Below, piece after piece: positions 2,223 to 17,494 of a DNA stretch of 61,111 nucleotides. The stretch comes from a virus (taxonomy: Duplodnaviria; Caudoviricetes). Every line of letters begins with the position of its first letter. Within the stretch, counting starts at the first letter, position 1. The notes under the pieces were generated by a model that was given only the letters and a program-made list of their open reading frames with translations, did no database searches and was not told the DNA's origin. The stretch spans positions 1 to 61,111 of the IMG/VR virus record IMGVR_UViG_3300016657_000047; one strand, given 5' to 3'. A program made the translations under genes and the position numbers.

Positions 2223-3461
2223 TTAATAGTTAGTGCCGATTTTCTGATGGAACAATCGATCGTTCAAGAATCGATGAGTCGGATCTTTCGAATCAGACAA
2301 AGCCTGTTCAGTATTGTAATCTAGTGCTGTTTTAAATAAGTAATTAGGGCGAACGGTGCCGCCAGATGAAATTGACCAGCGACCATCCTCATAAGTCGAC
2401 CAGAAGTTCATGGTGCGACCAAACCCGCTAATAACTGGCCAGATAGGTGCAATATCGGACAAATACAAACCAGGCAAGGTGGTGGCAGGTAGTGCTTCAT
2501 ATTCAACGAAGATTTCTTTGTTGTCGAGTAGCACTACAAACGACTGACTTAACTGTAAATACTTGCGAATAGCAGCATCACTGTACAGTTGTTGAGGAGA
2601 CACTACACTAGGGTTAAAGTCCGAAGTATCAAGTTCAAGAGAGGAGAGATCAATGACATCACGCGACTCATAAAAGCGTTCAAGTAGCGGGATGTTTTCA
2701 AACTCGATGCAGAAAGACGTGTCACCAACACGATAGATCACGCGGTGGTCCAAAACGTGCAGATAACCACCAATGACCACCATTAGGGTTTTTTCATTGA
2801 GGTCTTCGCCAAGATTGATATAAGCACGCTTACCCAATTGTTCATCGGCAGTTTGATTATAAATCATGCTATCCGTGATTGGAATAACTTTAAGAGTACC
2901 TAGGTTCTTAAAGCTCGTGATACCAATATGGTTGTCGCGAGCCTGTCGTGCAGTAGCCATACCGTCAATTACCCAAATACCTTGATCATTGGCCTCAGTG
3001 CGATGATAAAAGCCATTGACCGTTACCATGCAAGTTTTGCCAAACAAAGCATAGTCGGTATTAGGACGAGTAAGGAACAACCAATCCTTAGCCCCGAGTG
3101 GTAGTTCGGCATCAGGCGATGTAAGTTCATTAATCGGATTGACTTTATAGCCAGATTTAAAGGCGTCGCCGTACAAAGCATAACGAACATTTAAGTTAGG
3201 AAGTGTAGGGCTGGTAGGTAGACTATTTTCACCCAGTGAAGCTAGGTATTCGTTGAAAGTTTGACTAGAGCCGGCCTGTTCTTTACGCACTGCATCCAGA
3301 TTAAAAGAAACGTTATTTGGTAGAAATGGGTTGCTGAGAATTGCTACGGTCTGACGGAAAGTAGTGTAGATATCAGACATAGGCATATTTCCGATATCGG
3401 CAGATTCCCAGCGTCCGTCAGAATCCACCGTCTTGACAACTGTTGAAACCAAGGTATACAT
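2223..3461 (-). CDS. putative virion structural protein (phiKZ-like)
   Basis: 412 aa with GGAGG RBS; beta-rich, with TVNG..H motifs resembling jumbo-phage virion proteins; divergent from the fibre genes. Confidence 0.6.
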   Translation of the reverse strand: MYTLVSTVVKTVDSDGRWESADIGNMPMSDIYTTFRQTVAILSNPFLPNNVSFNLDAVRKEQAGSSQTFNEYLASLGENSLPTSPTLPNLNVRYALYGDAFKSGYKVNPINELTSPDAELPLGAKDWLFLTRPNTDYALFGKTCMVTVNGFYHRTEANDQGIWVIDGMATARQARDNHIGITSFKNLGTLKVIPITDSMIYNQTADEQLGKRAYINLGEDLNEKTLMVVIGGYLHVLDHRVIYRVGDTSFCIEFENIPLLERFYESRDVIDLSSLELDTSDFNPSVVSPQQLYSDAAIRKYLQLSQSFVVLLDNKEIFVEYEALPATTLPGLYLSDIAPIWPVISGFGRTMNFWSTYEDGRWSISSGGTVRPNYLFKTALDYNTEQALSDSKDPTHRFLNDRLFHQKIGTNY

Positions 3462-3547
3462 GCACTTTACCTCCTAGTGGGGTTCTCAAATACTATAGAC
3501 TTAGCATTAGGTTCTATAGGATATCGGCTTTCACCAGGAGAGTGTGT

Positions 3548-5686
3548 ATGAGTACTATCCCCTCCTATCCATTTGACCCCACTGGTCTTTTGGCTAGTAA
3601 TTTGATCGCTGGCGAACAGCAGATCATCACCGCTAATAACTGGCGCGATTACCATTTCATCGTGCCAAAATATGCCCCCTACTTCATGGACACCATGAAG
3701 ATCATTTATAAAGACACAGTGGGCGTACAAAAGATTCTACAGAAAGGTGTAGACTGGTACGAGTCGCATGAATTTATTTCTGCGAGTCGAGCTTGCGCCA
3801 CTCCGATCTTTGGTTCGATTAGCTTCCTTAATACAAGTCTAGCCGGTGTGGTTACTTTACAGTACCAGACCATTGGCGGTATTTGGGTTCAGGATGAACA
3901 AAAGATTTCTGAAATACTGGCAAACGTACTTCATAACCCACGCGTCACAGCATGGGAAGAAGTAATCGACATGCCCTATGCATTTCCACCAATTGATCAC
4001 GAGTGGAATTTGGTCGACATGGTCGGTATGTCTGAGGTGGTCGAATCTCTTCGTGATATCGAGACTTACATTCGACAGCAAGGACAAGATGGTTTAGTGA
4101 ACCATTTGGCGGATTTTAATAATCCGCACCGAGTGTCTGCTGAACAAGTGGGCTTGGGTTACGTAAGGAACATGCCAACTGCCTCTAAGGCAGAAGCCAT
4201 GGCAGGTACATCCGATAATGTATACCTAACTCCATGGTCGGCCAATCAACTGGTTACTGCATTGTTCGGTAACGGCATGAACACTCATTTGCAGGATTTT
4301 AATAATCCACATCGAGTGACAGCCGAACAAGTCAATGCATACAACAAGCAAGCCATGGATAGTTTGCTAGCTAGTAAACTGAATACCACAGACGCTGCTG
4401 CAGACGCCAGTAAGTTTAACGGTATGTTGCCTGCCGAATATGCAGCATATGTCTTGCAAGGGACAGCAGCAAACTCTATCCTGTTTTCTGGGCGCACATA
4501 TCTGCAGCTGCTGGAAGATGTTCAGGGTGGTGCCAGTGCCAATGCCATGCAGTTTAATGGCATGGATCAAGATGCCTATAAAGCATTTGTATTGGGTTCT
4601 GGTGTAGCGTATGATAGCGCTCGTTTTGGTGGCGTGTTATATAACGACTTTGTTAATAACATTGCAAACTCAACAGTGCTGAATTCCCAGAATCTCAATG
4701 GTCTGTCTCTAGCACAAGTCACAACACAGATTCTTTCGGGTACCGCATCCAATGCTGCAAAGTTTGGTGGTCTGTCTCCGGGCGACTATGCTATTTCGGT
4801 ACTGCAAGGTACTGCCGCGAATGCTGAAACGTTGGCCGGTATGACACCTAGTCAACTAGCTGCTTGGATCATGTCGAGCACTTCCGCAGGCGCTGCGTCC
4901 GACAGCCTGAAGTTTGCGGGTATGGATAAGGACCAATACAAGGAATTTGTATTGGCTACTGGCTCTGCTTACGATAGTAATCGTTTTGGTGGCCTGACTC
5001 CGACTGAATTTATCGACCAAGTTCAGCAAGGTACAAGTGCCAATGCTGATATGTTTGCTGGGATGAATTATAATGACTGGCAAACAAACATTCTAGGCTT
5101 GATTGATGGTAAGGCAGCTAACCAAACTACTCATCTAGGAACGACAGGTGAGTCGATTCGCACAAACTATCGTGCACTGGGTAATCTACATATGCCAAGT
5201 GCCGGCGAACCAGCTTCGGCCTATCCAGATGCATTTTGGTTGGTTTCTGGTGGCGACTCTAATGGTGGTGTTGACTCGACTTTGTTCTTGGTGCGAGTTA
5301 ATGTTCGCGGTACGATCGGTACGCCGATTGTCAATGTTAAGTGTATTCATGGTAATGGATCTGACGCTACATTTGGCTGGAACACGACAACTATTGATGA
5401 CCCGACATCACCCGGCGGTTCGTATGTCCAAGCAACCATTTACATCTCTACAGCGCAAGATATTGGTACCATCACCGTGACGGAGCTGTCACGGAGTCAG
5501 GCATCGACTATTTTCACTGAGGCCAATGTTACTGCAGTGGTACCTACAGGTTTCCAGGTAGTGAATGGACCTTATGCTACTTTGGTTGATTCTAATGACT
5601 TCGCTGTATTGCAGGCAGATGTAGCAAGTGCGTTTGATTCTCTGACTACGGCATTTAATAACCTTCAGACTAGTCTGGGTGTTTAA
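3548..5686 (+). CDS. tail-fibre/baseplate-associated virion protein with NPH and A-x-(N/D)-(A/S)-x-x-F-x-G repeats
   Basis: Start reassigned to ATG 3548 (AGGAG RBS). N-terminal YPFDPTG domain shared with the next gene; two H..DFNNPHRV.AEQV repeats; ten ~23 aa tandem repeats. Confidence 0.75.
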   Translation: MSTIPSYPFDPTGLLASNLIAGEQQIITANNWRDYHFIVPKYAPYFMDTMKIIYKDTVGVQKILQKGVDWYESHEFISASRACATPIFGSISFLNTSLAGVVTLQYQTIGGIWVQDEQKISEILANVLHNPRVTAWEEVIDMPYAFPPIDHEWNLVDMVGMSEVVESLRDIETYIRQQGQDGLVNHLADFNNPHRVSAEQVGLGYVRNMPTASKAEAMAGTSDNVYLTPWSANQLVTALFGNGMNTHLQDFNNPHRVTAEQVNAYNKQAMDSLLASKLNTTDAAADASKFNGMLPAEYAAYVLQGTAANSILFSGRTYLQLLEDVQGGASANAMQFNGMDQDAYKAFVLGSGVAYDSARFGGVLYNDFVNNIANSTVLNSQNLNGLSLAQVTTQILSGTASNAAKFGGLSPGDYAISVLQGTAANAETLAGMTPSQLAAWIMSSTSAGAASDSLKFAGMDKDQYKEFVLATGSAYDSNRFGGLTPTEFIDQVQQGTSANADMFAGMNYNDWQTNILGLIDGKAANQTTHLGTTGESIRTNYRALGNLHMPSAGEPASAYPDAFWLVSGGDSNGGVDSTLFLVRVNVRGTIGTPIVNVKCIHGNGSDATFGWNTTTIDDPTSPGGSYVQATIYISTAQDIGTITVTELSRSQASTIFTEANVTAVVPTGFQVVNGPYATLVDSNDFAVLQADVASAFDSLTTAFNNLQTSLGV
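4396..5098 (+). repeat. ten ~23 aa tandem protein repeats (approximate bounds)
   Basis: AADASKFNG, AANSILFSG, SANAMQFNG, AYDSARFGG, VLNSQNLNG, ASNAAKFGG, AANAETLAG, ASDSLKFAG, AYDSNRFGG, SANADMFAG, each followed by a short helical segment. Confidence 0.8.
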
Positions 5687-7000: not shown

Positions 7001-7054
7001 ATTCACTACTCTCGCTGGTGCGACAACCAGTGGGAGTGGTGAATGTTCTTTTTT
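7001..7054 (+). terminator. Rho-independent terminator
   Basis: Long imperfect stem ATTCACTACTCTCGCTGGT / ACCAGTGGGAGTGGTGAAT followed by a T-run. Confidence 0.75.
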
Positions 7055-7121: not shown

Positions 7122-8282
7122 ATGGCTCAAATGTTGACAACAACGAGCGGGATTAGTAACCTTAATGTAGCCGCTATGCAGTCTGTGATTAACAATATCC
7201 GGGCACGATTGGCTACTAGTAAAAATATTCGAGCACAAGACATCCAGGATCTCATGTGGGTTTATAACTCTTGGATCCAACATACACACAGCGTGACGGA
7301 TTTCTACTGGACCGCTTACGGTAATGCGTCGGCATATAGCACCACATCAGTGAATGGGGTCACCAGTACCGTACTGCGCCCTGATCAGTTGACAGGTAAA
7401 AGCTTTAGGATCCTTGCCGACTTCGCTACACCTGACTCCGTCATTATGTGGCAAGTACCACCAGACATGTCGGAATTAAATGCCGTGGTAGTCGGAGGAG
7501 GAGGTGGTGGTGGAGGTAGTACGACCAAACCAAATTGGGATAGCGGCCCCGGCGCCGGTGGCGGTTCTGGTTATATTACCACTGCGACTATCCCGGTTAC
7601 ACCAGGTGAATGGCTCAGTATTGAAGTGGGCGCTGGCGGTACTCAGGGTACACATGGTCTTTATGTGTCTGGCGGTACTGGTGGGCGCGGTGGTACTTCA
7701 CGCATTAAGCGTGGCAATACTGTGCTGGCAGAAGCGCTTGGCGGCTTTGGGGGTGGAGGTGCTCGTTGGTGGGGCGGTGGTTCTAATTGGGGCAGTAGTG
7801 GTATGCCAGCTGCCCCCGGTGGCATTGGGCTTTTTAACGGTCAAAATGGTGGCGCCGGTAACAACGATATTGAACATTCTTATCAGGCCGGTAACGGTGC
7901 TGGTGTTGGTGGTCCTCCGAAGGTTAATATCTCCGGTGGTGATGGTTTAAATGGTTATGTTGGCGCTAAACAAGGTACTTCGCGTTGGCAAGGTTCTTGG
8001 CTACAAAACCAAGGGGGTGGTGGTGGCGGCTGGGCTGGAAACGGCAACGCCATGTTTGGTGGTTTGGGTGGTGGTGGTGGTGGGGGTGGCTTGAGCCGTG
8101 CCGGTGAAGTCGGTGGAAATGGCTATATAGCTTTCATTATCCCTATCCCACCGGTAGCCCAGGCTGATTTCCCTGATTTCATTAGCGGGGCCACTATCAA
8201 TACTGAATTGGTGCGGCGTTTTATTAGCATCATCAATGCGATTAAACAGCACAGCCACTCCATTACCGATACGTGGTATTAA
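7122..8282 (+). CDS. glycine-rich virion/fibre-like protein with two HxH modules
   Basis: Gly-rich domain (VVGGGGGGGG, GAGGGSG, VTPGE.L.I.VGAGG, GG.GYI) flanked by QHTHSVTD and QHSHSITD motifs; AGGAG RBS. Confidence 0.75.
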   Translation: MAQMLTTTSGISNLNVAAMQSVINNIRARLATSKNIRAQDIQDLMWVYNSWIQHTHSVTDFYWTAYGNASAYSTTSVNGVTSTVLRPDQLTGKSFRILADFATPDSVIMWQVPPDMSELNAVVVGGGGGGGGSTTKPNWDSGPGAGGGSGYITTATIPVTPGEWLSIEVGAGGTQGTHGLYVSGGTGGRGGTSRIKRGNTVLAEALGGFGGGGARWWGGGSNWGSSGMPAAPGGIGLFNGQNGGAGNNDIEHSYQAGNGAGVGGPPKVNISGGDGLNGYVGAKQGTSRWQGSWLQNQGGGGGGWAGNGNAMFGGLGGGGGGGGLSRAGEVGGNGYIAFIIPIPPVAQADFPDFISGATINTELVRRFISIINAIKQHSHSITDTWY

Positions 8283-8297
8283 TTTTAAGGTACAAAT

Positions 8298-8519
8298 ATG
8301 CCATCGTCTTCTTTTGAATACGTGTCGACAGTAGCGTCACCGCAACCAGATATCACACCTCCGGTAGCGGGCGCCACAATGTCACAATCCACCATCACTC
8401 AAATGACGGATGTGTTGGAATCCTTGTTGACGCATACCCATGTTTTTTACGACGATTATGGGACTGCATGCAATTGTAACTGCAATTGTAACTGCAACTG
8501 CACTCGCGGATCCCTTTAA
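8298..8519 (+). CDS. 73 aa Cys/Asn-repeat peptide, candidate RiPP-like precursor or modified fibre-tip peptide
   Basis: AAGG RBS; ends HTHVFYDDYGTACNCNCNCNCNCTRGSL (6 Cys, 5 Asn) using mixed synonymous codons; lies upstream of four radical SAM genes. Confidence 0.75.
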   Translation: MPSSSFEYVSTVASPQPDITPPVAGATMSQSTITQMTDVLESLLTHTHVFYDDYGTACNCNCNCNCNCTRGSL

Positions 8520-8566
8520 TCTCATTCTGTGGGTATTTTAACCAAAAAATAAAGGAGATTAGATAG

Positions 8567-8594
8567 CTCCCCACAACCCGAAGGCTGTGGGGAG
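8567..8594. terminator. stem-loop between convergent genes
   Basis: CTCCCCACA...TGTGGGGAG. Confidence 0.65.
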
Positions 8595-8599
8595 TATCG

Positions 8600-9661
8600 C
8601 TACTTAGTTTTCCTTTTCTTTCTATTACGTGCACTTTCTGCCAACTTAGCTCGATAGGCAGGATCAGCATTGCGTGCCCTGATCTTTTCGGTCTGTTGTG
8701 CACGGTAAACAGGGTCAGCCCAGCGGTTCTTGAGTTTACTCCCGATTTTCTTTCCGATATCAGGGTTATCTTCAAGTCGTTTCTTATTTACTTGATTACG
8801 GAATTCTTTGTATTCCGGATCTTTGTATTTCTCCGTGTGAATAGCACTGAGTTTAGCGCGAAGGTCAGGTTGATCGTCGTAACGTTGTTGATTGATCTCA
8901 GTTTGCTTTTGTCTGAACTCAGGATCTTGCCAGTTAGCAGCATGTGTTTCACTAAGCTTGTTATTCAGATCGCAGGACAGATACCGATCTTGGTTAGCCT
9001 TCGTGCGTTTAGCCCGCATCTCCGGATCAGCCCATTGATCGACCATGCGTGCACTGGCGTTCTTGACGTTCTTAGCACGTTTAACCGGATCAGCCCACTC
9101 AGCTTTCTTGCGGTCAGAACGACCCTGTCTTACTTTAGGATCTACATTGACCCTTTTTAAGTGTTCAAGATGTTTTTGAAGAAGGATAGGGTTATTGATG
9201 TACTGGGCTTTAACTGCACCACTGTGCAACTCACGTTGTTCCTCGGACATCGGAATTAAGTTGTTAGTGGCTACTGGAGAGAGATTGCAAATGAAAATGG
9301 ATTGTTTGAAGTAACTGATCAGTTCGTGTTCTACTTGCAGAGCTTCTTCGATTGTAGGATAAATACGGTAGTAGAAATCAATTTCGCTACCACTTTCTTT
9401 GTAGGAAAGTAGAACGTTACGATTCTTATGAGTGCCTCTGATTAGTTCAGATTTATGGCTTACTGCCCTGTTCCTGATAGCGGTTGAAGACCCAATGTAG
9501 AAGGTGCCCAGTTTATAGAAATGAAGAATGTAAACACCAGGTTCGTTGGGAATCAACGATACCATACCTGTATTGAAGAGATTAGTTCTCTGATAACCTA
9601 ACAGATTAACATGATCCAATGCGATGCGATCATGTGGTTCATGGTCGACTGAGTTAGTCAT
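8600..9661 (-). CDS. GIY-YIG homing endonuclease with repetitive helical C-terminal region
   Basis: GVYILH..FYIGSS..R...H...L..GTHKN, E..LI, N motifs; C-terminal (W/Y).DP..R.K repeats. Confidence 0.85.
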   Translation of the reverse strand: MTNSVDHEPHDRIALDHVNLLGYQRTNLFNTGMVSLIPNEPGVYILHFYKLGTFYIGSSTAIRNRAVSHKSELIRGTHKNRNVLLSYKESGSEIDFYYRIYPTIEEALQVEHELISYFKQSIFICNLSPVATNNLIPMSEEQRELHSGAVKAQYINNPILLQKHLEHLKRVNVDPKVRQGRSDRKKAEWADPVKRAKNVKNASARMVDQWADPEMRAKRTKANQDRYLSCDLNNKLSETHAANWQDPEFRQKQTEINQQRYDDQPDLRAKLSAIHTEKYKDPEYKEFRNQVNKKRLEDNPDIGKKIGSKLKNRWADPVYRAQQTEKIRARNADPAYRAKLAESARNRKKRKTK

Positions 9662-9696
9662 TGTGCTTCCTTTCGATCATTAATGTTACCCTCGTT

Positions 9697-9720
9697 CAAA
9701 TATGTAATATGTGTTTGAAA
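9697..9720 (-). promoter_or_regulatory. candidate phage early promoter (motif copy 1)
   Basis: Minus strand TTTCAAACACATATTACATATTTG; resembles the phiKZ early TATATTAC element and three other copies in this window. Confidence 0.5.
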
Positions 9721-9739
9721 AAGAAAGGAACAAAATAGA

Positions 9740-10642
9740 ATGAAAACCATTTTTATTAAAAGTGGCAATTATACCGAAACACCAGGTATTACTGCCGCTG
9801 GTGCTATTAATAGCATCCACGATTTTAATGTTTCTCACATGGCAAACATTAAAACAGATATGGCATTCAGGTTTGATTTGATTAATGGCGAGTATCGTCT
9901 GTATCTATCGCCTCGATTCACTAGCGGTGCAGAAATCTATCGTACCGTGGATGTGGATCTCATGTGCCGTAAAGCAGACCAGTTTGGTTTTGTATATTTT
10001 GGTTCTGTGTCAGATGGTCGAGATGTCTTGGGTGTTCCTGACATTCTGAAGTCACTGAAGATTGTCGGCCTCGATGCCAAAACTGGAGCGTTCTTTAATT
10101 GCGAGACAGGGCGTCCAGCTACTGGTAATACCATCGTACCAGTTCTCTTCTGTGTGAAGATGGCCACTGATACATACGCGTTGATAATGTCGTCATTCGC
10201 GTATGCTGATGCCCATCTAGCAAATAGCCTGGATGATGTATCGGTGATGGTTGGTGACAAAACCGTAGTGTTGGCCAACGAAGGTGACTATATTCGTAGT
10301 CAGTTTGTTGACGTACAGTTTAAAAATGTACGTAAATACATCCGTAATTCGTCCGACACTGGTGGTCATGCGGTTTTTGTGGGGCGTGGGACTAAAGTGG
10401 AAGTTGACGTTTTCCGAAATATGCCATTTGTTGATGAGGCATTCAGGAAGAACTTCCCGCTGACTGTGGATAGTAATTTTGATTACACGGTTAGCGATGG
10501 CCGCATTTCATTTACAGTACCTGAAGAACCAATGTCTGGGTATCTGTCTATCGCGATACAGACTAGCAAACTCTACGACTTGATGGCTAAGAGCGTAGAA
10601 CGTGAGTCTTTGTCTTACGACTTTATAGTGGTTGTTTTATAA
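9740..10642 (+). CDS. hypothetical protein in the radical SAM cluster
   Basis: 300 aa ORF with AAAGGA RBS; no recognised motif. Confidence 0.75.
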   Translation: MKTIFIKSGNYTETPGITAAGAINSIHDFNVSHMANIKTDMAFRFDLINGEYRLYLSPRFTSGAEIYRTVDVDLMCRKADQFGFVYFGSVSDGRDVLGVPDILKSLKIVGLDAKTGAFFNCETGRPATGNTIVPVLFCVKMATDTYALIMSSFAYADAHLANSLDDVSVMVGDKTVVLANEGDYIRSQFVDVQFKNVRKYIRNSSDTGGHAVFVGRGTKVEVDVFRNMPFVDEAFRKNFPLTVDSNFDYTVSDGRISFTVPEEPMSGYLSIAIQTSKLYDLMAKSVERESLSYDFIVVVL

Positions 10643-10650
10643 AATGGGTA

Positions 10651-10690
10651 GCTAGAGACAATAGACGGAACATAGTCTATTGTCTCTAGC
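10651..10690. terminator. perfect 16 bp stem-loop inside the cluster
   Basis: GCTAGAGACAATAGAC-(8 nt)-GTCTATTGTCTCTAGC. Confidence 0.65.
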
Positions 10691-10710
10691 GTCTTTATAA
10701 AGGGAAGAAA

Positions 10711-12327
10711 ATGCAATCACAAACTATTAAATTTCATCAAAAGAAACCGACAGAGCGCATCAAGAAAGTTGCAGAAGTTAAAGACATTCTGTTTTCGGAA
10801 TTGAAAGTACTAAATGTCATTCTGACCAATGCATGTAACCTTTCATGTAGCTATTGTTTCGAACAACATAAAAAAGACTATGGCAAGTTTACTCAGGAAC
10901 AATTGAAGCAGGTTTATGATTTCCTAGTGAGCGCTAACGATCTACCAAACCGTAACTTTCAGTTCTTTGGTGGTGAGCCGCTGGCGCAGAAGGCCAAGAT
11001 CCTGGAGTTCTGTCGCACATACAAAGAAGAGCTGTCGGCGAATAAAGAAAAGGTGCGAGTATCGATTGTTACTAACGCCCTGTTGCTGACGCCTGAGTTT
11101 ATGAAAGAGTATTGCAGTTATGACTTCACCTCTTTGGTGATTTCGCTGGATACTGATAACGCCGAAACTAATCGACGCGAATTGACGAAAGAAAATATCG
11201 ACTACATCTTTGATATGCTCGAGTTGATTCCCGATTACATGATGCGCGAGAATCACCATTGTGCCATTCGTTGTACTATCAATGAAGAAAGTGTACCATA
11301 TCTGCGTGGGTTCATGCATCGTCTTTATGGGTCGGGGGTTCGCAACTTTGTTATTCACCCGCTAATCATGGGTCGTGAACAGGGTGTAGTGGAATGGGTA
11401 ATGCCGGCGTCAGCTGAATACCGCGAAGAGAAGCAAAATAACGCAGCAACTTCATGGGATGAAATGACTGATGAGCTGAAGTCCATGATGTTTCGTTATC
11501 CGGACTTCAAGATTCATTGGGCTGAAGGTGTAGGCGTTAAGGGTGAATCCAACTGCATGGTCGGTTCGGATATGATTGCCATGGATGCCTCTGGTGATTT
11601 CAGTGGCTGCTACTTCTTCACTAACCTGAAGGAGACCGCAGGCCACACCATGTTGGGTAACCTGTTCCGTGACGAAATCTACATCGATCGTTACGTGAAC
11701 TTCCAGAAGAACTATGTAGATGCACTGGAACATGAAGAGTGTCAGTCGTGTCATCTGAAGAACTTCTGCTACCAATGCCCGGCTGGTAACATTTCTACTG
11801 GCGATAAACTGTTCCGTCCTGATGGCATGTGTAAACGTATTGTGCAGCTGTTCATTGATCTGCGTGAACATGCAAATAAACAAGCGATGCATAAGAAGTT
11901 TGCCGACATCAATGCTGCCCTCAAAGTAGAAGGCGAAGTGGTGTTGTCTCGTGCAGTACTACACTTGATGTACAAGCACTGCAACGATGAACGTCTGGAT
12001 ACCGACATGGTAAATAGCCTGACTAATTTGCCACATCATCGGTACCTACTGACGGCATTTAAGGATAACTACGATGGTAAAGTACTTCCGTCTGTAGATG
12101 AATTCTTGAGTTCCTTCAGTGCCTCCAGAAAGACTTCGGCACTTGCATTGTATTCGCACGCCTGCAAAGCTAATGGTGTTCCTATTCCGTTGGATGTTTA
12201 CGAACTGGAAGATTCCAGTCAGGATGCGGCATTCATCACTCTGCTGCATTTGTTGGTCATCAACAATAGCAGCTATCTTAACAAATACGATCCGGCACAT
12301 TCCCGTAGCCAGATCCTCGACCTGTAA
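10711..12327 (+). CDS. radical SAM/SPASM-domain protein 1
   Basis: CNLSCSYC (CxxxCxxC), FFGGEP, TN, ISLD; SPASM-type cysteines CMVG..GC..CQSCHLKNFCYQCP..C; extra C-terminal helical domain. Confidence 0.92.
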   Translation: MQSQTIKFHQKKPTERIKKVAEVKDILFSELKVLNVILTNACNLSCSYCFEQHKKDYGKFTQEQLKQVYDFLVSANDLPNRNFQFFGGEPLAQKAKILEFCRTYKEELSANKEKVRVSIVTNALLLTPEFMKEYCSYDFTSLVISLDTDNAETNRRELTKENIDYIFDMLELIPDYMMRENHHCAIRCTINEESVPYLRGFMHRLYGSGVRNFVIHPLIMGREQGVVEWVMPASAEYREEKQNNAATSWDEMTDELKSMMFRYPDFKIHWAEGVGVKGESNCMVGSDMIAMDASGDFSGCYFFTNLKETAGHTMLGNLFRDEIYIDRYVNFQKNYVDALEHEECQSCHLKNFCYQCPAGNISTGDKLFRPDGMCKRIVQLFIDLREHANKQAMHKKFADINAALKVEGEVVLSRAVLHLMYKHCNDERLDTDMVNSLTNLPHHRYLLTAFKDNYDGKVLPSVDEFLSSFSASRKTSALALYSHACKANGVPIPLDVYELEDSSQDAAFITLLHLLVINNSSYLNKYDPAHSRSQILDL

Positions 12328-12340
12328 GAGAACTTGACCC

Positions 12341-13420
12341 ATGAACTACGATAACATCCAAGACGTATCCATTTACGTTGGTCCTGCTTGCAACTTCAAC
12401 TGCACGTATTGCGACCGCGCTTACGTGAAGAATGTAGGTGTGGATGCTGCTGAATGTGATCCGGCTTTGATCGACTTCGTAGTTGATGTGGTCGAACATT
12501 CTGAAAAACCAATGGTTTCCTTCCATGGCGGGGAGCCATTGGTTTACATTAAAACCATGCGGAAGATTATCTTGGCGATTCTGGAACGTGTCCCGGATTT
12601 CAAAGACAAGGCAATCTTCTTTATTCAGACTAACGGTTCGTTGATTCTACAGCACCGTTCATTCTTCGAAGAATTCAAAGACGTGCTGTATGTAAGCATC
12701 AGCTACGACTTTCATCATCAGGGTTTGAATCGTACCGAGTACGATATTGAAGCGACGTTGACTTTCTTACAAGGTCAAAACATCGACGTGCAATTCCAGT
12801 ACGTAATTCCGACGAATGAAAAGTCGGTGTTTAGTCCTGAGACTTTTAACGCGATCATCAAGCTGTACCGCGAATACAAGATCTCGTGTTTGAACTTGAT
12901 CCTGTTGCGCCACATCCGTCGGGAAGATCGGTTTGAAACGGTGATTGCTGATGAAACACTCTACCTACAGCAGTTCTTTACGGCTTTCTTGCAGTTTGTG
13001 CAGTTGCTATACGTCTCTGGCATTAACCTGTTTATAGATGGCCATACTACCAAGATTGATAAGCAGTACTTTGAGAATCATAAGCAGTTGGTATTGGCTC
13101 CCAATGGCATGATTGTTCCGGAGTACCAGTTTATTGAATACGATGATTACGATTTTGCTATTGGTCGCTGGAAGCCCTACGTGGAAGTCATCCGAGACCA
13201 AATGCCTAAGAAGGCTGCAGACAAGATTCGTAAACCGTGTCATGGCTGCCAAGCACGTGAGCTATGTGGACTACAGTACCACTACGCTATCTTCGATATG
13301 GATCCGCCAACGCCAAATCGGTGTAGAGAATTCTATCTACTAAACAAGATCGCTATCAAACATCTGTATAAGCTCAAAGAGAAACCGACGTTACTTCAGC
13401 ATTTGGGTATTCAACAATGA
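12341..13420 (+). CDS. radical SAM protein 2 with partial SPASM
   Basis: CNFNCTYC, FHGGEP, QTNG, ISYD; C-terminal CHGCQARELC..C. Confidence 0.9.
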   Translation: MNYDNIQDVSIYVGPACNFNCTYCDRAYVKNVGVDAAECDPALIDFVVDVVEHSEKPMVSFHGGEPLVYIKTMRKIILAILERVPDFKDKAIFFIQTNGSLILQHRSFFEEFKDVLYVSISYDFHHQGLNRTEYDIEATLTFLQGQNIDVQFQYVIPTNEKSVFSPETFNAIIKLYREYKISCLNLILLRHIRREDRFETVIADETLYLQQFFTAFLQFVQLLYVSGINLFIDGHTTKIDKQYFENHKQLVLAPNGMIVPEYQFIEYDDYDFAIGRWKPYVEVIRDQMPKKAADKIRKPCHGCQARELCGLQYHYAIFDMDPPTPNRCREFYLLNKIAIKHLYKLKEKPTLLQHLGIQQ

Positions 13421-14562
13421 CTAAAGAAATCGAGATTATCGACCCCAAATACCACTTCGTTATACACGACAGTTTAGAGAACATCAACTTCGATGTGACA
13501 TACTCCGTGTTTAAGAAGTACAACTGTAAGGCTGGTTGCAAGCTTTGTTATATCCGTGATGACTTTCTACCAGATGCAAAGTTTAAGTCGTACATTCCAA
13601 TCAGCCAGTCATTGGAAGAGAAAAGTTACATCGATCGTTTAATGTCGTTCCTATCTCACTTCCATATGGCGGCCACCATTGACGACATGTGGTTCTTAAA
13701 ACACGATCATCCAGAACACTTCCGTTTCTATCAAGCAATGGACAATGTGTTCTGGCTGTCTTCGATGACTGACAATGCTGTGTTCCGCCATCTAGACATC
13801 ATTGAGAACGATATCAAAGTAAAAGGCTTACGGGAAATCTCCATTAGCGAAGAGTTCTTGTACTCGGTGAATATCAACAAGTTACTACATGTACTGTATC
13901 GCATCCAGCGTAAAGCCAAGATCATGAAGGTGAAAATCATCCTTCAGGGTATTGAAGACAGTAATATGTGGCATAGTAACCGCTGTGAAGCTTTGGTGTC
14001 CTGGTGCCGTACAAACGACGTTATGGTCGAGAAGCAGTGTGAGTATGGAAAGGATACGACAAGCTCACCAGAGGTGCTTAAAACGCTGGGAAACACCCGT
14101 TACAGCAGCGATAGAACCTTTACCGAAGAAACTACCTACAGCGAAAACAAAACTGACCTGTATCCGATCCATTCCGAGTCGTTATTTCTGATGCATGATG
14201 ACTTCTATTCGGAATTGAAATCTGCAACCTCGGAAGGTTACAGTACTCCGTTTGCCAATCTGAAGGACTTTGATGATCCAGTAAAGTTCTTGGCTAAAGT
14301 CCTTCAAGGCAAAGTAACAGACTATGCTAGGTATGTGAATTCGATTCAAGATAAAGACAACGTCTACTACCAGTATTTCAAATACGTGGTGGACAACATC
14401 AAGATCAATCCAGATTTTAACTTCATTCCCCATATTGCAATGAAGAACTATACCGACTACTTTAAGAAGATTGTGGAGAGTGGTCGTATGGTAGCTACGC
14501 AATACGGACTACTCGATCCTACGAATAGTGAAGTTATTATCCCACTGTACACAATGAAATAG
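13417..14562 (+). CDS. divergent radical SAM-like protein 3
   Basis: N-terminal CKAGCKLC (CxxxCxxC) but no GGEP and no SPASM; ATGA overlap with the previous gene. Confidence 0.65.
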   Translation: MTKEIEIIDPKYHFVIHDSLENINFDVTYSVFKKYNCKAGCKLCYIRDDFLPDAKFKSYIPISQSLEEKSYIDRLMSFLSHFHMAATIDDMWFLKHDHPEHFRFYQAMDNVFWLSSMTDNAVFRHLDIIENDIKVKGLREISISEEFLYSVNINKLLHVLYRIQRKAKIMKVKIILQGIEDSNMWHSNRCEALVSWCRTNDVMVEKQCEYGKDTTSSPEVLKTLGNTRYSSDRTFTEETTYSENKTDLYPIHSESLFLMHDDFYSELKSATSEGYSTPFANLKDFDDPVKFLAKVLQGKVTDYARYVNSIQDKDNVYYQYFKYVVDNIKINPDFNFIPHIAMKNYTDYFKKIVESGRMVATQYGLLDPTNSEVIIPLYTMK

Positions 14563-14564
14563 CC

Positions 14565-15812
14565 ATGAGCCTAACATCTTTTCGGATTGAAAAAACTGGT
14601 GAAATCTTTCAGTACGACAACAGTCTGAATACGATTCTCAATGCAGCAGGCGCGCCATTGGGTAAAGAATCGTTTTTGTTGCCAGAGCCTCCTAAGTACC
14701 ATAAGTCAGATGCACCACACACAATCAAAGTGATCTTGGGGCACGCATGTAACTATAGTTGTACCTATTGCGTGCAGAAGGACATTGGTAATCCGGCGGA
14801 GCGGCCAAAGAACTTCATGACTGGTGAATTGATCCGCAAGATCAAGAAACGCCTTGACTTGGGGCAGTTGACTCGTGTGGAGCTATGGGGAGGCGAAACG
14901 CTGTTGTATTGGTCCGACATCATTGAGATCATGACAGCATTAGATGACAAGAAGATCAGTTGGTATATCCCAACCAATGGCACCATCTTGAAATTGAAGC
15001 ATGCTGAATTCTTCAAGAAACTTAAGGGTAAGGTTAGCATCGGTATCAGTCACGATGGGCCTGGTCATGTCGCGCTGCGTGGTCCGGAATTCCTGCATCG
15101 TAAAGTAGAAGAACTTCGTGCTTTACAAGATGCCGGTATTCAATTCAGCTTTAATGCAGTGATCACCACTACTAACTACAATCTCTTTAAAATCGATGAG
15201 TATTTCAAATCGTTCCTAATGGAACATAATTTGAAACCAGTACCGATCGTTTACGAAGTAGGGCGTACTTACGAAACTGGTGCCTGCGCTACTGAGTCGC
15301 ATGTAGTTACTGCCGAACAGATTCCAGAATACCGCACGATCCTAAAGCAATACTTACGTCGCCATTACTTTGAGTCTAAGCGTTATTCGCGTTGGAATGA
15401 ATACATGCTGCTGCCTACCAATTTGTACCATTTCGGTAGTGGCGCGATTCCATATGCCAAAACACTCGCCCAGCAAAGTCCAATCCATCATTATTCCAAT
15501 TGTGGTACGGATCACCCTGGTTTGATCACATTGGACATGAATGGTAATTTGCGGACATGCCAGAACTCTAATGACGAATACATCTACGGTAATGTGATCA
15601 ACATTACCCAAGTTAACATGAAGAAGGTAGACTACGTCAAAGACGACTTCTGTAAGGATTGCTCGGTACTTCGACTCTGTAATCGCAGCTGCCCTATTGA
15701 TTTGCCTTTTAACACATTCTTGGCTAATCATCAGATCGAGAATGCACACTACTCTGAAATTCAACTAATGGCTTTCGAAGTATTGTTTGAAAGCCCTGTA
15801 ACTAAAGTGTAA
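14565..15812 (+). CDS. radical SAM/SPASM-domain protein 4
   Basis: CNYSCTYC, LWGGET, PTNG, ISHDG; SPASM cysteines CG..C..CKDCSVLRLCNRSCP. Confidence 0.92.
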   Translation: MSLTSFRIEKTGEIFQYDNSLNTILNAAGAPLGKESFLLPEPPKYHKSDAPHTIKVILGHACNYSCTYCVQKDIGNPAERPKNFMTGELIRKIKKRLDLGQLTRVELWGGETLLYWSDIIEIMTALDDKKISWYIPTNGTILKLKHAEFFKKLKGKVSIGISHDGPGHVALRGPEFLHRKVEELRALQDAGIQFSFNAVITTTNYNLFKIDEYFKSFLMEHNLKPVPIVYEVGRTYETGACATESHVVTAEQIPEYRTILKQYLRRHYFESKRYSRWNEYMLLPTNLYHFGSGAIPYAKTLAQQSPIHHYSNCGTDHPGLITLDMNGNLRTCQNSNDEYIYGNVINITQVNMKKVDYVKDDFCKDCSVLRLCNRSCPIDLPFNTFLANHQIENAHYSEIQLMAFEVLFESPVTKV

Positions 15813-15827
15813 TCGCAAGGAATCATC

Positions 15828-16634
15828 ATGTCTAAATTTCTCGAACCTTTCACTTACCCAGAAACAAAAGCCCAAGTTGCTCTACTGGAAACTAAACTAG
15901 AGCAACTTAAAAACCATCCGGTTTTTAATTACATCAGCAATATTTACGACCTCCAAACCCTAATGCAGTGGCAGGTATTTGCAGTATGGGAATTTATGTC
16001 GATCGTTAAACGTTTGCAGTGTGAATATACTGGTTTACGTTTCCCTTGGGTGCCCCCACGAAATCAACAAACTGCACGATTCTTTAACGAACTCGTACTT
16101 GCATTGGAAAGTTATAAAACAGAAGATGGATCACATCAAAGCCATCTTGAGTTTTACATCGAAGCAATGCGTGATTCTAATACCACAACCAAAGTGATTG
16201 TTGAGTTCATTAATCTACTGCGTTTTGGTCTTCCGCCAGTAGTGGCCGCAGAACGCGCGGGTGCAAATGAAGAAATTAAAACCAGTGTTTCTGCAACTAC
16301 TGAAACAGTGAACTCTTCGTCAAATGAAGTAGTGTTGAGTACTTTCTTATTTGGTTATGTAGCAGCCATACCCACGATGTTTAAAAACATCAAGACTAAA
16401 CTGAAGGTACCTGAAGAGAGTATTCATAAGTACTCACGCTATTTGCAATATTACATTGATCTAGACAGCGATGAGTTCAACGCAGTAGCTATTGAAACGC
16501 TGGTTGCTGAACTTGATGGTGATGTGATTCGTACCGAAGCAGCACTAAAAGCAGCACTCGATGTTATTAATAGATACATTAAGCTGTTTGATGTACTTCA
16601 ATTGTCAATCGAAGTTAATAAACCTCTACAATAA
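15828..16634 (+). CDS. DUF3050-like (heme-oxygenase-like fold) protein with degenerate metal site
   Basis: HP.F, VFAVWEFMS.VKRLQ, WVP, RFFNE.VL..ES, SH.E.Y..AM; ligand positions altered relative to the next gene. Confidence 0.75.
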   Translation: MSKFLEPFTYPETKAQVALLETKLEQLKNHPVFNYISNIYDLQTLMQWQVFAVWEFMSIVKRLQCEYTGLRFPWVPPRNQQTARFFNELVLALESYKTEDGSHQSHLEFYIEAMRDSNTTTKVIVEFINLLRFGLPPVVAAERAGANEEIKTSVSATTETVNSSSNEVVLSTFLFGYVAAIPTMFKNIKTKLKVPEESIHKYSRYLQYYIDLDSDEFNAVAIETLVAELDGDVIRTEAALKAALDVINRYIKLFDVLQLSIEVNKPLQ

Positions 16635-16653
16635 ACGGAGAAAAGAGCGGGAT

Positions 16654-17442
16654 ATGGTTAATTCGCAGTCACTAATTACCAACCACCCAGCATATGGGCG
16701 GTTGAATGAGGTTACTGAAACTCTGAAGACACATCCGATCTTTAGTAGTGTTCGGACTATTGAGCAATTGCGTGCATTTATGGAATGGCATGTATTTGCA
16801 GTATGGGACTTTATGTCCCTAGTTAAGCGTATTCAGAGTCAGTATGCATCTACTCGCATACTGTGGGTACCATCCCGCAATTCTCGTATCACTCGTTTTA
16901 TCAATGAGATAGTGCTGGCCGAAGAATCCGATGTTCTTCCTAACGGCACCTATTGTAGTCATTTTGAATTGTATCTACAAGCTATGAAGGAAATTGGTGC
17001 ATCTACAGAGACTATCGATAAATTCATTAGCCAGATTCAATTCGAAACCCCTGTTTCAGCCGCAACAAAACAAGTAGGTGATATCGATCCAGCTATTTGT
17101 CAGTATGTCGAGCGCACTACTAATTTAGCACTTCGGGCTGCTAATATTGATGTGCTGGGGGAATTTGTCTTTGGGCGGGAGAATGTAATCCCTGGAATGT
17201 TCCGTACATTACTTAAAGAGTTGGATTTTACAAAGGAACAATGCCCTTTGTTTATCCACTACCTTGAGCGGCATATTGAGATTGACGGTGATGACCATGG
17301 TCCGATGGCATTGGGCATGCTAGAAGATGAAGCCATGGGTAGTGAAACGCTGGTCGGACGTGCCATTCAGACGGGCATTGCTGCAATAGAGAGTCGTATC
17401 CTTTTCTGGGATAAGGCGCTTGAGACAATTAAACAGGTATAA
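16654..17442 (+). CDS. DUF3050-like heme-oxygenase-like diiron protein
   Basis: Start reassigned to ATG 16654. FMEWHVFAVWDFMSLVKR, RFINEIVLAEESD, SHFELYL.AM, FGRE..IP.MF, YLERHIEIDGDDHGP. Confidence 0.85.
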   Translation: MVNSQSLITNHPAYGRLNEVTETLKTHPIFSSVRTIEQLRAFMEWHVFAVWDFMSLVKRIQSQYASTRILWVPSRNSRITRFINEIVLAEESDVLPNGTYCSHFELYLQAMKEIGASTETIDKFISQIQFETPVSAATKQVGDIDPAICQYVERTTNLALRAANIDVLGEFVFGRENVIPGMFRTLLKELDFTKEQCPLFIHYLERHIEIDGDDHGPMALGMLEDEAMGSETLVGRAIQTGIAAIESRILFWDKALETIKQV

Positions 17443-17450
17443 CCTCCCCC

Positions 17451-17494
17451 AAAGCTAAGGGCTTCCATTCAATTGGGAGATCCTTAGCTTTATG
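17451..17494 (+). terminator. terminator closing the rSAM/DUF3050 operon
   Basis: AAAGCTAAGG...CCTTAGCTTT followed by ATG. Confidence 0.7.

Follow-up and report, generated by a model that had tools for sequence, protein, structure and literature searches.

A gene cassette that combines a 73-amino-acid Cys-repeat peptide with radical S-adenosylmethionine (radical-SAM) enzymes was identified in the IMG/VR virus record IMGVR_UViG_3300016657_000047 (Duplodnaviria; Caudoviricetes), whose full length of 61,111 bases is referred to here as the window. The cassette encodes a Gly-rich protein (GlyHTH), the peptide, a protein termed p300, three radical-SAM enzymes (rS1, rS2 and rS3), a divergent protein termed p381 between rS2 and rS3, and two DUF3050 proteins (D1 and D2). 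We consider it moderately probable that this cassette, found in phiKZ-related jumbo phages, serves to produce a small Cys-repeat subunit of a tail-fibre-associated complex and to mature it chemically. A preliminary description of the window had proposed a phage multi-enzyme pathway acting on the peptide, and comparison with related loci now supports it (35 of 35 testable loci). Its suggestion of a virion appendage or receptor-binding tip as the product gains from the finding that a Cys-Asn repeat ends fibre-like proteins beside an rS3-like gene in other phages, and from the predicted docking of the peptide on GlyHTH. The closest named relatives of the window are the Ralstonia jumbo phages RP12 and RP31 (p381 53.7%, rS1 62% and rS3 66.7% identical), which are related to phiKZ (PMC5468394). 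The estimated completeness of the window is 21%, which implies a genome near 290 kb.

The Cys-repeat peptide family

The peptide has a variable N-terminus followed by one helix-HTH-xxx-D module (H46, H48 and D52) and ends in ACNCNCNCNCNCTRGSL, that is, C(NC)5TRGSL. Homologues were found in 65 clusters of a 5.8-billion-protein collection. The family alignment displayed 12 invariant positions (L40, L43, H46, H48, D52, C62, C64, N65, C66, C68, R70 and G71), and the pattern of the module is G..I......M..VL..L..HTH...D. From the family 75 distinct tails were drawn. A (C-x)n-C run of three to six Cys was present in 74 of these, with five Cys in 58 of the 74. The residues between the Cys were N (n = 208), Q (n = 33), A (n = 25), E (n = 12), D (n = 11) and T (n = 6), and N, Q, D and E together accounted for 264 of 295 (89%). 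The Cys run was followed by T, S, G or Q and then R-G in 69 of the 74 tails, and the end of the tail reads x-Arg-Gly-x-hydrophobic. In locus L043 (10844-11053) the spacer residue is missing and the end of the tail reads C-x-C-R-G.

Long forms with two HxH-type modules and a Cys-Asn tail in one chain were also observed, namely P0018, P0019 and P0030 (122 amino acids) and P0063-P0065 (109-111 amino acids). The 122-amino-acid forms are located on contigs of 246-253 kb filed under Ewingella, Yersinia ruckeri and Salmonella, which are probably jumbo-phage genomes sequenced along with the isolates. A search for longer fused forms of the peptide returned one protein, of 135 amino acids.

Among named phages, a tblastn search with the peptide matched RP12 and RP31 only, with partial cover. 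The RP12 homologue, of 65 amino acids, lies between ORF074 and ORF075 (L004, 8141-8338), and nothing is annotated in the corresponding stretch of any of the three RP12 and RP31 records in GenBank/RefSeq; this small gene is overlooked by annotation. In 185,579 species genomes the peptide had a single match, in a metagenome-assembled genome; of the 25.7-kb contig concerned, 12.6 kb were retrieved, and these carry the cassette. One match in a collection of this size indicates that the system is essentially restricted to phages.

Conservation of the cassette

The gene order of the window is the same in RP12, from ORF072 to ORF080. Through the peptide, 21 IMG/VR loci were found, and rS1 comes after the peptide in all of them. 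The order peptide-(p300)-rS1-rS2-p381-rS3 was complete in 18 of the 21, which is wherever the contig extends that far. The related loci were also approached from the enzyme side. A single-sequence query with p381 returned no match and an alignment profile was needed, which gave 41 loci. A peptide-family open reading frame (ORF) was present in 35 of these, and in the other six (L032, L042, L050, L058, L064 and L065) the contig ends before the position of the peptide. Thus, wherever a locus found through p381 alone could be tested (35 of 35), the peptide was present with the enzymes, and enzyme clusters routinely lacking a Cys-rich peptide, which the preliminary description had named as an argument against its own proposal, were accordingly not encountered. 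In L043 the peptide gene follows rS3 rather than preceding rS1.

The radical-SAM enzymes

Four CxxxCxxC proteins had been described for the window, two with SPASM Cys sets, one with a partial set and one divergent, and these Cys classes hold across the relatives. In rS1, 3+7 Cys (the full SPASM set) were invariant in 30 of 30 sequences, and in rS3 3+6 Cys were invariant in 37 of 37. rS2 has 3+4 Cys, the four forming one auxiliary-cluster motif; of its three cluster Cys, two were found in 35 of 36 sequences, and the remaining Cys were present in all 36. The cut-off of the Pfam family Radical_SAM (PF04055, 29.5 bits) was exceeded by rS1 (67.4 bits), rS2 (43.2 bits) and rS3 (46.5 bits). Against the SPASM family (PF13186) rS1 reached 15.9 bits, with a cut-off of 21.5; its seven C-terminal Cys are those invariant in the 30 sequences, and beyond this SPASM-type seven-Cys region it carries a C-terminal extension of about 150 amino acids.

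The best NCBIfam match of rS1 was the PapB ranthipeptide maturase (NF047865, 122.1 bits, below the cut-off of 340). The SCIFF maturase (TIGR03974) gave 79.9 bits (below the cut-off of 425) and QhpD (TIGR03906) 71 bits (cut-off 453). Against NF047865, rS2 scored 54 and rS3 44 (cut-off 340). The best solved relative of rS1 was PDB 5wgg (E = 5.3e-18), aligned from residue 95 of the chain on; the first approximately 95 residues of this chain we take to be the recognition element (RRE) of ribosomally synthesised and post-translationally modified peptide (RiPP) systems. The nearest families of the cassette enzymes are all radical-SAM/SPASM enzymes that modify Cys of peptides or proteins, and Viperin-like and MoaA-like models were among the weak matches.

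The fourth protein, p381, was without a match to Pfam Radical_SAM, and its profile had no match below E = 0.05 among PDB sequences. The CxxxCxxC motif (C37, C41 and C44) was invariant in 16 of 16 sequences. Foldseek by itself gave weak matches to the predicted structure, which had a predicted local distance difference test (pLDDT) value of 83. The ten top structural matches were all radical-SAM proteins (Z = 8.3-10.4 over 234-262 residues, root-mean-square deviation 4.7-6.1) and included ChlB (Z = 10.4), SuiB (10.1), MoaA (9.9), SkfB (9.8) and anSME (9.5) as well as PqqE (9.1), TigE (8.5) and 5wgg (8.3). A conserved Asp-Asp pair (D89 in at least 90% of the sequences, D90 invariant) is found at the presumed place of the GGE motif, a position judged by eye. 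As modelled, p381 is a divergent protein of the radical-SAM fold and a marker of the cassette. The family comprised 125 clusters at 50% identity in a search of 1.84 billion representatives.

Two members of the p381 family, P0079 (746 amino acids) and P0122 (644 amino acids), are fused to an N-terminal part of approximately 325-380 residues and are possibly rS2-p381 fusions. A B12-binding radical-SAM protein of about 620-680 amino acids (Pfam B12-binding and Radical_SAM) adjoins the cassette in L011, L016 and L022 (L022 13471-15330, minus strand), which adds one more radical enzyme to these fibre blocks.

Cys-tailed fibre proteins in other phages

Tail-fibre and virion genes surround the cassette in the window as well as in RP12 and divergent loci. 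Fibre-type neighbours elsewhere include fibres with a Peptidase_S74 chaperone and RCC1-repeat tail proteins. The peptide and p300 gave no match to tail-fibre families in Pfam or PHROGs.

A search with rS3 led to two unrelated named phages, Achromobacter phage JWF and Ralstonia phage RSP15, each with a similar enzyme in its tail module. The JWF fibre protein gp028 (L068, 3829-5280), annotated by the depositor with similarity to T4 gp36 and Hint, contains NCNCDCNCNCSC, a Cys-Asn/Asp repeat, directly ahead of the Hint-like domain, and the radical-SAM gene gp030 lies two genes downstream. The repeat stops exactly at the first Cys of this Hint-like (intein-type) domain, and self-cleavage there would make the repeat the new C-terminus of the fibre. 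ORF048, the side tail fibre of RSP15, has NTNCQCGN at its end, and the radical-SAM gene ORF045 comes after two intervening genes.

A scan of IMG/VR for DNA able to encode CNCNCNC gave at least 120 stretches in at least 80 loci, near-duplicates included. Among the matches listed, CNCNCNC was part of an ORF of at least 100 amino acids at 38 of 80 loci, and in 31 of these 38 it was situated at most 31 residues from the C-terminus. A radical-SAM homologue on the same strand was present at 25 of the 38 listed loci, downstream in 24 and upstream in one, and several of the 13 listed loci lacking such a homologue end near the gene. At the 42 other loci among those listed a radical-SAM homologue was found twice, both times with a member of the peptide family.

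Of ten representatives of the Cys-tailed proteins, seven matched PHROGs named "tail fiber protein", and the only Pfam match was a collagen repeat, in one of them. The enzymes of these simple systems are, like those of the cassette, far under all curated NCBIfam cut-offs, the anaerobic sulfatase maturase being the best match for some. Between the Cys-tailed fibre and the enzyme a gene for about 270 amino acids is often found, which represents a separate family with RSP15 ORF047 as a member (98.8%). JWF gp029 was considered as a member of this family or of the p300 family and belongs to neither.

Judged by these sequences, phage tail-fibre modules repeatedly combine a C-terminal tail of Cys-x repeats with a SPASM radical-SAM enzyme. 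Since the repeat forms the C-terminal end of a fibre accompanied by one rS3-like enzyme in other phages, the best reading of the Cys tail is that of a fibre-tip element, which would have been turned into a separate subunit in the lineage of the window.

GlyHTH as predicted partner of the peptide

The HxH-xxx-D module of the peptide is present twice in GlyHTH, where two helix-HxH-xxx-D modules (H54, H56, D60 and H377, H379, D383) are arranged around an inserted Gly-rich domain. The peptide profile matches GlyHTH weakly. Seven residues (H54, H56, D60, G67, H377, H379 and D383) were invariant in 17 of 17 sequences of the GlyHTH family, most members of which are about 130 amino acids long and without the Gly-rich insert. 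GlyHTH itself matched only a Gly-rich domain family in Pfam and PHROGs of unknown function. A gene of the family was found in 20 of the 21 loci identified through the peptide, in most of them before the peptide, and for the 21st (L008) a weak candidate was located on the same contig (L038).

Prediction of a complex between GlyHTH and the peptide gave a score of 0.70, the best of three controls being 0.00; the mark applied to such scores was attained in 58 of 80 solved complexes, compared with 2 of 110 mismatched pairs. The contacts of the prediction runs agreed by at least 56%, and the pLDDT of the partner was at least 57. The predicted interface comprises residues 3-56 and 361-379 of GlyHTH and 11-53 of the peptide, and thereby both GlyHTH modules and the module of the peptide. 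Peptide residues 54-73, which hold the Cys tail, are outside of it. According to this model GlyHTH is a partner of the peptide and not a bystander.

HxH motifs bind metal at the axis of the trimeric fibres of phages, as in T4 gp37 and gp12. The likeness to these fibres consists of an HxH after a helix in fibre-type proteins and of three motifs that are predicted to meet. It is a likeness at the level of the motif only, and the two cases differ in that the three modules derive here from two chains (2+1) and not from a homotrimer.

Some GlyHTH proteins bear extra domains. The one in L020 is Hint-like and 45% identical (E = 1e-42) to that of JWF gp028, and a domain with this identity to the JWF Hint-like domain ends the GlyHTH proteins of L020 and L021. 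In two loci only, L019 and L022, GlyHTH and the adjacent Peptidase_S74 tail-fibre protein begin with a similar I-T-R-x-T-S-G-like motif, and this common N-terminal motif may be a shared site of attachment to the virion.

The DUF3050 proteins and p300

The preliminary description spoke of two DUF3050-like diiron proteins. Both genes do belong to Pfam DUF3050, but the diiron label is unsupported, because HamA, the only characterised DUF3050 member, is reported to be mono-iron. HamA (PDB 9vwb) of the fragin pathway is described as a mono-iron, 2-oxoglutarate-binding enzyme of the heme-oxygenase fold, which oxygenates valine tethered to a carrier domain; residues H40, E84, H96, R167, H199 and R240 are essential for binding of 2-oxoglutarate and some of them are also iron ligands (PMC12522199).

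D2 scored 262 bits against DUF3050 (cut-off 22.2) and retained all six of these key residues, as did 21 of 21 distinct DUF3050 homologues in related loci. D1 scored 175.8 bits and has Q, L, H, Y, Y and Y at the six HamA positions, so that one of six is kept. By its sequence D1 looks like a degenerate duplicate specific to the window, either a pseudo-enzyme or a protein with a new function. DUF3050 is an accessory part of the cassette: it was found in 24 of the 41 loci identified through p381 and was missing from 17. D2 resembles HamA in sequence (E = 2.9e-72) and in its six key residues, and the HamA substrate is likewise protein-bound (PMC12522199). The cassette differs from the HamA pathway by the lack of a non-ribosomal peptide synthetase and of an N-oxygenase, by partners that are radical-SAM enzymes and a ribosomal peptide, and by the degenerate D1.

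p300 was homologous to the protein of about 300 amino acids encoded at the equivalent position of other loci (hhalign 99.5%, E = 1.6e-22). Its predicted structure (pLDDT 80) is rich in beta strands. Foldseek returned weak tandem beta-sandwich matches only (template-modelling (TM) score about 0.2), VIA-align returned generic Ig/filamin matches confined to residues 184-300 (Z up to 6.8), and the corresponding rows of a protein atlas were Ig/PKD-like (TM below 0.4). From the model we take p300 to be a non-enzymatic protein with an Ig/filamin-like C-terminal domain; matches to a beta-sandwich as generic as these do not allow a function to be derived.

Genomic setting of the cassette

All ORFs of the preliminary description were present at the positions given there, and the features of the window in and around the cassette are listed in Table 1. 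The cassette genes are co-oriented as had been described, but the block also contains a homing endonuclease gene on the minus strand. No gene of this endonuclease family was found among the 21 related loci that were clustered together with the window, and none is annotated at that place in RP12; the endonuclease is an insertion in the cassette and stands outside the system. Of the two terminators thought to bound the block, the upstream one was called by the terminator scan, but the downstream one is an inverted repeat only. The hairpin between p300 and rS1 could limit read-through, so that the enzyme genes would be transcribed less than those of GlyHTH, the peptide and p300.

Upstream of the cassette are two genes whose RP12 homologues, ORF072 for the first and ORF073 for the second, are annotated as virion structural proteins; the true start of the first is probably at an internal Met. 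Downstream of the cassette a gene of a virion-protein family follows (PHROG match). From the sequence, the start of D2 is most likely at Met31, preceded by a purine-rich stretch, rather than at the beginning of the open frame. A megablast search of the gene block against named phages gave no match. DNA of the window occurs in four metagenome runs from freshwater and drinking water, which belong to two studies, and no RNA data set was listed.

Table 1. Genes and sequence elements of the cassette and its upstream flank in the window.
Feature	Position	Strand	Evidence
Tail-fibre-like virion structural protein	3443..5686	+	747-amino-acid ORF; matches to phrog_2163 (E = 1.8e-72, "virion structural protein") and to several PHROGs named "tail fiber protein"
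Second tail-fibre-like virion structural protein, 418 amino acids	5737..6993	+	phrog_2163 E = 8.6e-95; tail-fibre PHROGs
Terminator-like hairpin upstream of the cassette	7001..7044	+	19-bp stem followed by a T run (terminator scan)
GlyHTH, 386 amino acids	7122..8282	+	Pfam Gly_rich_2 E = 6.3e-13
Cys-repeat peptide, 73 amino acids	8298..8519	+	Six alternating Cys; 65 homologous clusters
Hairpin separating the peptide and endonuclease genes, which converge	8567..8594	.	9-bp G+C-rich stem read from the sequence; uncalled by the terminator scan
GIY-YIG homing endonuclease, 353 amino acids	8600..9661	-	Pfam GIY-YIG E = 1.4e-07; phrog_314 homing endonuclease
p300, 300 amino acids	9740..10642	+	No Pfam family; phrog_32604
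Hairpin between p300 and rS1	10651..10690	+	Perfect 16-bp stem (terminator scan)
rS1	10711..12327	+	Pfam Radical_SAM E = 2.3e-18
rS2	12341..13420	+	Pfam Radical_SAM E = 6.2e-11
p381, 381 amino acids	13417..14562	+	No Pfam family; CxxxCxxC; phrog_36229
rS3	14565..15812	+	Pfam Radical_SAM E = 5.9e-12
D1, DUF3050	15828..16634	+	Pfam DUF3050 E = 1.4e-51; PDB 9vwb E = 1.2e-47
D2, DUF3050	16651..17442 (ORF open from 16561)	+	Pfam DUF3050 E = 6.7e-78; PDB 9vwb E = 2.9e-72
Inverted repeat behind D2, weak candidate for a terminator	17451..17460 / 17482..17491	+	10 bp, 21-nt loop, no T run; uncalled by the scan

A model for maturation of the peptide

The working of the cassette may be depicted as follows; the substrate relation, the location in the virion, the metal binding and the chemistry are what we infer, and the docking is what is predicted. 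The peptide would consist of two functional parts, an HxH-xxx-D module and a C-terminal tail in which Cys alternates with Asn (Gln, Asp, Glu or Ala in relatives). Its module would dock on both modules of GlyHTH and form a three-module bundle in which the HxH motifs come together, presumably round a metal ion, and the Cys tail would stay free of the bundle as a substrate of rS1, rS2, rS3 and the divergent p381. rS3 would be the type of enzyme held in common with the simple systems and would act here alongside the other three. The thiols would most likely end up in thioether (ranthionine-type) links with the carboxamide or carboxylate side chains next to them, so that the tail becomes a rigid knot without free thiols. 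A HamA-like DUF3050 protein, where present (about 60% of the cassettes), would add an O2-dependent oxidation, and the Ig-like p300 could serve as a scaffold or adaptor. GlyHTH would be a protein that accepts fibre-type add-on domains, the Gly-rich domain being the add-on in the window.

If the peptide is matured in this way, thioether cross-links from Cys to Asn, Gln, Asp or Glu are the most likely chemistry, to which we give a little under an even chance. The choice is made because of the nearest relatives of rS1, the 89% of carboxamide and carboxylate residues between the Cys, and the precedents of QhpC and CrpA. The SPASM enzyme QhpD installs Cys thioether cross-links in QhpC, which stays within a larger assembly, and in the known Cys thioether enzymes, as here, acceptors of the Asp/Glu/Asn type are found beside Cys. 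In the CrpC/CrpA system Cys thioether cross-links are made in a small Cys-rich protein, the native function of which was left open in the accessible text of the report (PMC13692751). As far as that text goes, QhpD/QhpC and CrpC/CrpA are together the closest functional analogy to the maturation proposed here. Both are cellular systems and not phage systems, without an HxH docking module or a strictly alternating Cys-x repeat, and the similarity to QhpD is weak. Formylglycine or other Cys-directed radical chemistry may apply instead.

Several observations weigh against a Cys-repeat subunit that is matured for the tail fibre. Every cassette enzyme scores far under all curated NCBIfam cut-offs, so that the type of reaction is unreadable from homology, and the best match of rS3 is the formylglycine-forming anaerobic sulfatase maturase (TIGR03942, 59.9 bits, below the cut-off of 349.45). 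In Pfam, none of 10 proteins matched a PqqD/RRE family at E <= 0.1, a search that divergent RREs can escape, and no peptidase or exporter domain was detected among the conserved cassette genes, functions for which a phage could depend on lysis and the proteases of its host. The docking is a model of modest pLDDT (57-64), built from alignments made by the authors. The counts of the CNCNCNC scan are lower bounds from a listing that includes near-duplicate loci; the at least 10 types of tail-bearing protein among the matches listed were judged by eye and are unclustered, and 3 of the 10 representatives had no PHROG match. The intervening genes of about 270 amino acids were tried as homologues of p300 and rejected (hhalign probabilities 0.1-0.6%). 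In the RP12 record only ORF072 and ORF073 are named virion structural proteins, and ORF074 (GlyHTH) and ORF075 (p300) are "hypothetical"; the RP31 paper lists 32 virion proteins (PMC5468394). One heterodimer with a single Cys tail also gives no reason for four enzymes when the simpler systems have one.

Alternative explanations

The least improbable of the alternatives, and still an unlikely one, is a free RiPP. The N-terminal module would then be a leader, the modified core would be released at lysis as a toxin, signal or exclusion factor, and GlyHTH would be a leader-binding chaperone that replaces the RRE. A short peptide with a conserved Cys-rich C-terminus beside SPASM enzymes is what such a system would have, a separate leader-binding protein could substitute for the RRE that Pfam did not detect in the enzymes, and the docking prediction suits a chaperone equally well. 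Against it, no peptidase or exporter is found among the conserved genes, the module also occurs in a protein to which domains of fibre type are added, the Cys repeat elsewhere ends large fibre-like proteins in which no cleavage of leader from core is apparent, and the cassette is placed inside blocks of tail-fibre genes. The label "RiPP-like" of the preliminary description suits the enzymology better than the product, for which neither RRE nor protease nor exporter was found by Pfam.

Alternatively, the Cys tail may be a metal or iron-sulfur site of a fibre protein, and the radical-SAM enzymes would build or insert the cluster, or would make formylglycine or another reactive group; this we hold to be improbable. 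The alternation would put all thiols on one face of a strand, like the adjacent HxH, and the best full-length match of rS3 is the anaerobic sulfatase maturase. This enzyme acts on a Cys in a short Arg-containing motif, C/S-x-P/A-x-R, and the C-x-C-x-R-G at the end of the tail loosely recalls its Cys form, C-x-P/A-x-R. However, that match amounts to 59.9 bits with a cut-off of 349, the third position of the motif is Cys and not Pro or Ala, and no sulfatase gene is found nearby. Metal binding leaves the preference for N, Q, D and E between the Cys (264 of 295) unexplained, and the best matches of rS1 are thioether-forming maturases.

A diffusible peptide-derived cofactor or small molecule used in infection, similar to pyrroloquinoline quinone (PQQ) or mycofactocin, is highly improbable. 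The combination of a short peptide with several radical-SAM/SPASM enzymes and a protein of the heme-oxygenase fold is reminiscent of such pathways, and PqqE was among the structural matches of p381 (Z = 9.1), but DUF3050 is missing from 17 of 41 loci, no peptidase and no PqqB, PqqC (PF03070) or PqqD family was found by Pfam, a Cys number varying from 3 to 6 is odd for a defined cofactor, and the cassette has a fibre context. It is no more credible that enzymes and peptide are mere neighbours, with the radical-SAM proteins directed at nucleotides, at tRNA or at metabolites of the host and the peptide a small structural protein of no relation to them: phages are known to carry nucleotide-modifying radical-SAM enzymes and Viperin-like and MoaA-like models are among the weak matches, but the two co-occur in 35 of 35 testable loci, the pairing of a Cys tail with a radical-SAM enzyme recurs independently in unrelated phages, and the best full-length matches are SPASM peptide maturases.

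Relation to known systems and significance

The fibre-associated, matured subunit favoured here shares with the ranthipeptide and SCIFF systems a radical-SAM core with the seven Cys of a SPASM domain, a short Cys-rich peptide encoded alongside and the best sequence matches of rS1. It differs from them in having no RRE by Pfam, no leader protease or exporter found and three to four enzymes per peptide; it is also phage-encoded within blocks of tail-fibre genes, and the N-terminal module of its peptide is common to a neighbour protein. The kind of enzymology is known, and what is new here is its biological setting.

Radical-SAM genes of giant phages have been noted before. In Aeromonas phage 332-Vera eight were reported in a structural and tail-fibre cluster and called highly unusual, and no substrate or function is offered in the accessible part of that paper (PMC12390700). 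The description of RP12 and RP31 places three radical-SAM genes and an MgoB-like gene under "other genes", with no link between them and no peptide mentioned in its accessible text (PMC5468394). A term search of the accessible part of a preprint survey of phage biosynthetic clusters gave no mention of Ralstonia, RP12, radical SAM, jumbo or sactipeptide. No published description of the cassette, the peptide or Cys-tailed fibres with radical-SAM partners was found in a full-text search, the coverage of which leaves out most subscription journals and in which radical SAM and tail fiber alone were not paired.

In a wider and more tentative perspective, it is possible that many phage lineages finish their fibre tips by SPASM radical-SAM conversion of a Cys-x repeat to a cross-linked or chemically armed tip, and that in phiKZ-related phages this tip has become a separate subunit of 65-75 amino acids, plugged into a carrier via an HxH metal-site module, with four proteins of the radical-SAM type and a HamA-like oxygenase acting on it. 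The pairing of Cys tails with radical-SAM genes among the loci listed in the CNCNCNC scan lends this general modification of fibre tips real support by comparison.

Known radical-SAM/SPASM maturases serve the making of bacterial peptide natural products or act on a few cellular proteins, and no link to virion or tail-fibre proteins was found in print. If the proposed role is true, it would introduce new chemistry for the receptor-binding organs of phages, a virion-protein modification so far undescribed, and would account for the radical-SAM genes in structural clusters of giant phages. The strictly alternating Cys-Asn/Gln/Asp/Glu repeat would be a new class of RiPP substrate, and the helix-HxH-D module common to substrate and carrier a new recognition device. 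Host recognition or the stability of the fibre would then hinge on iron-sulfur radical enzymes made in the infected cell.

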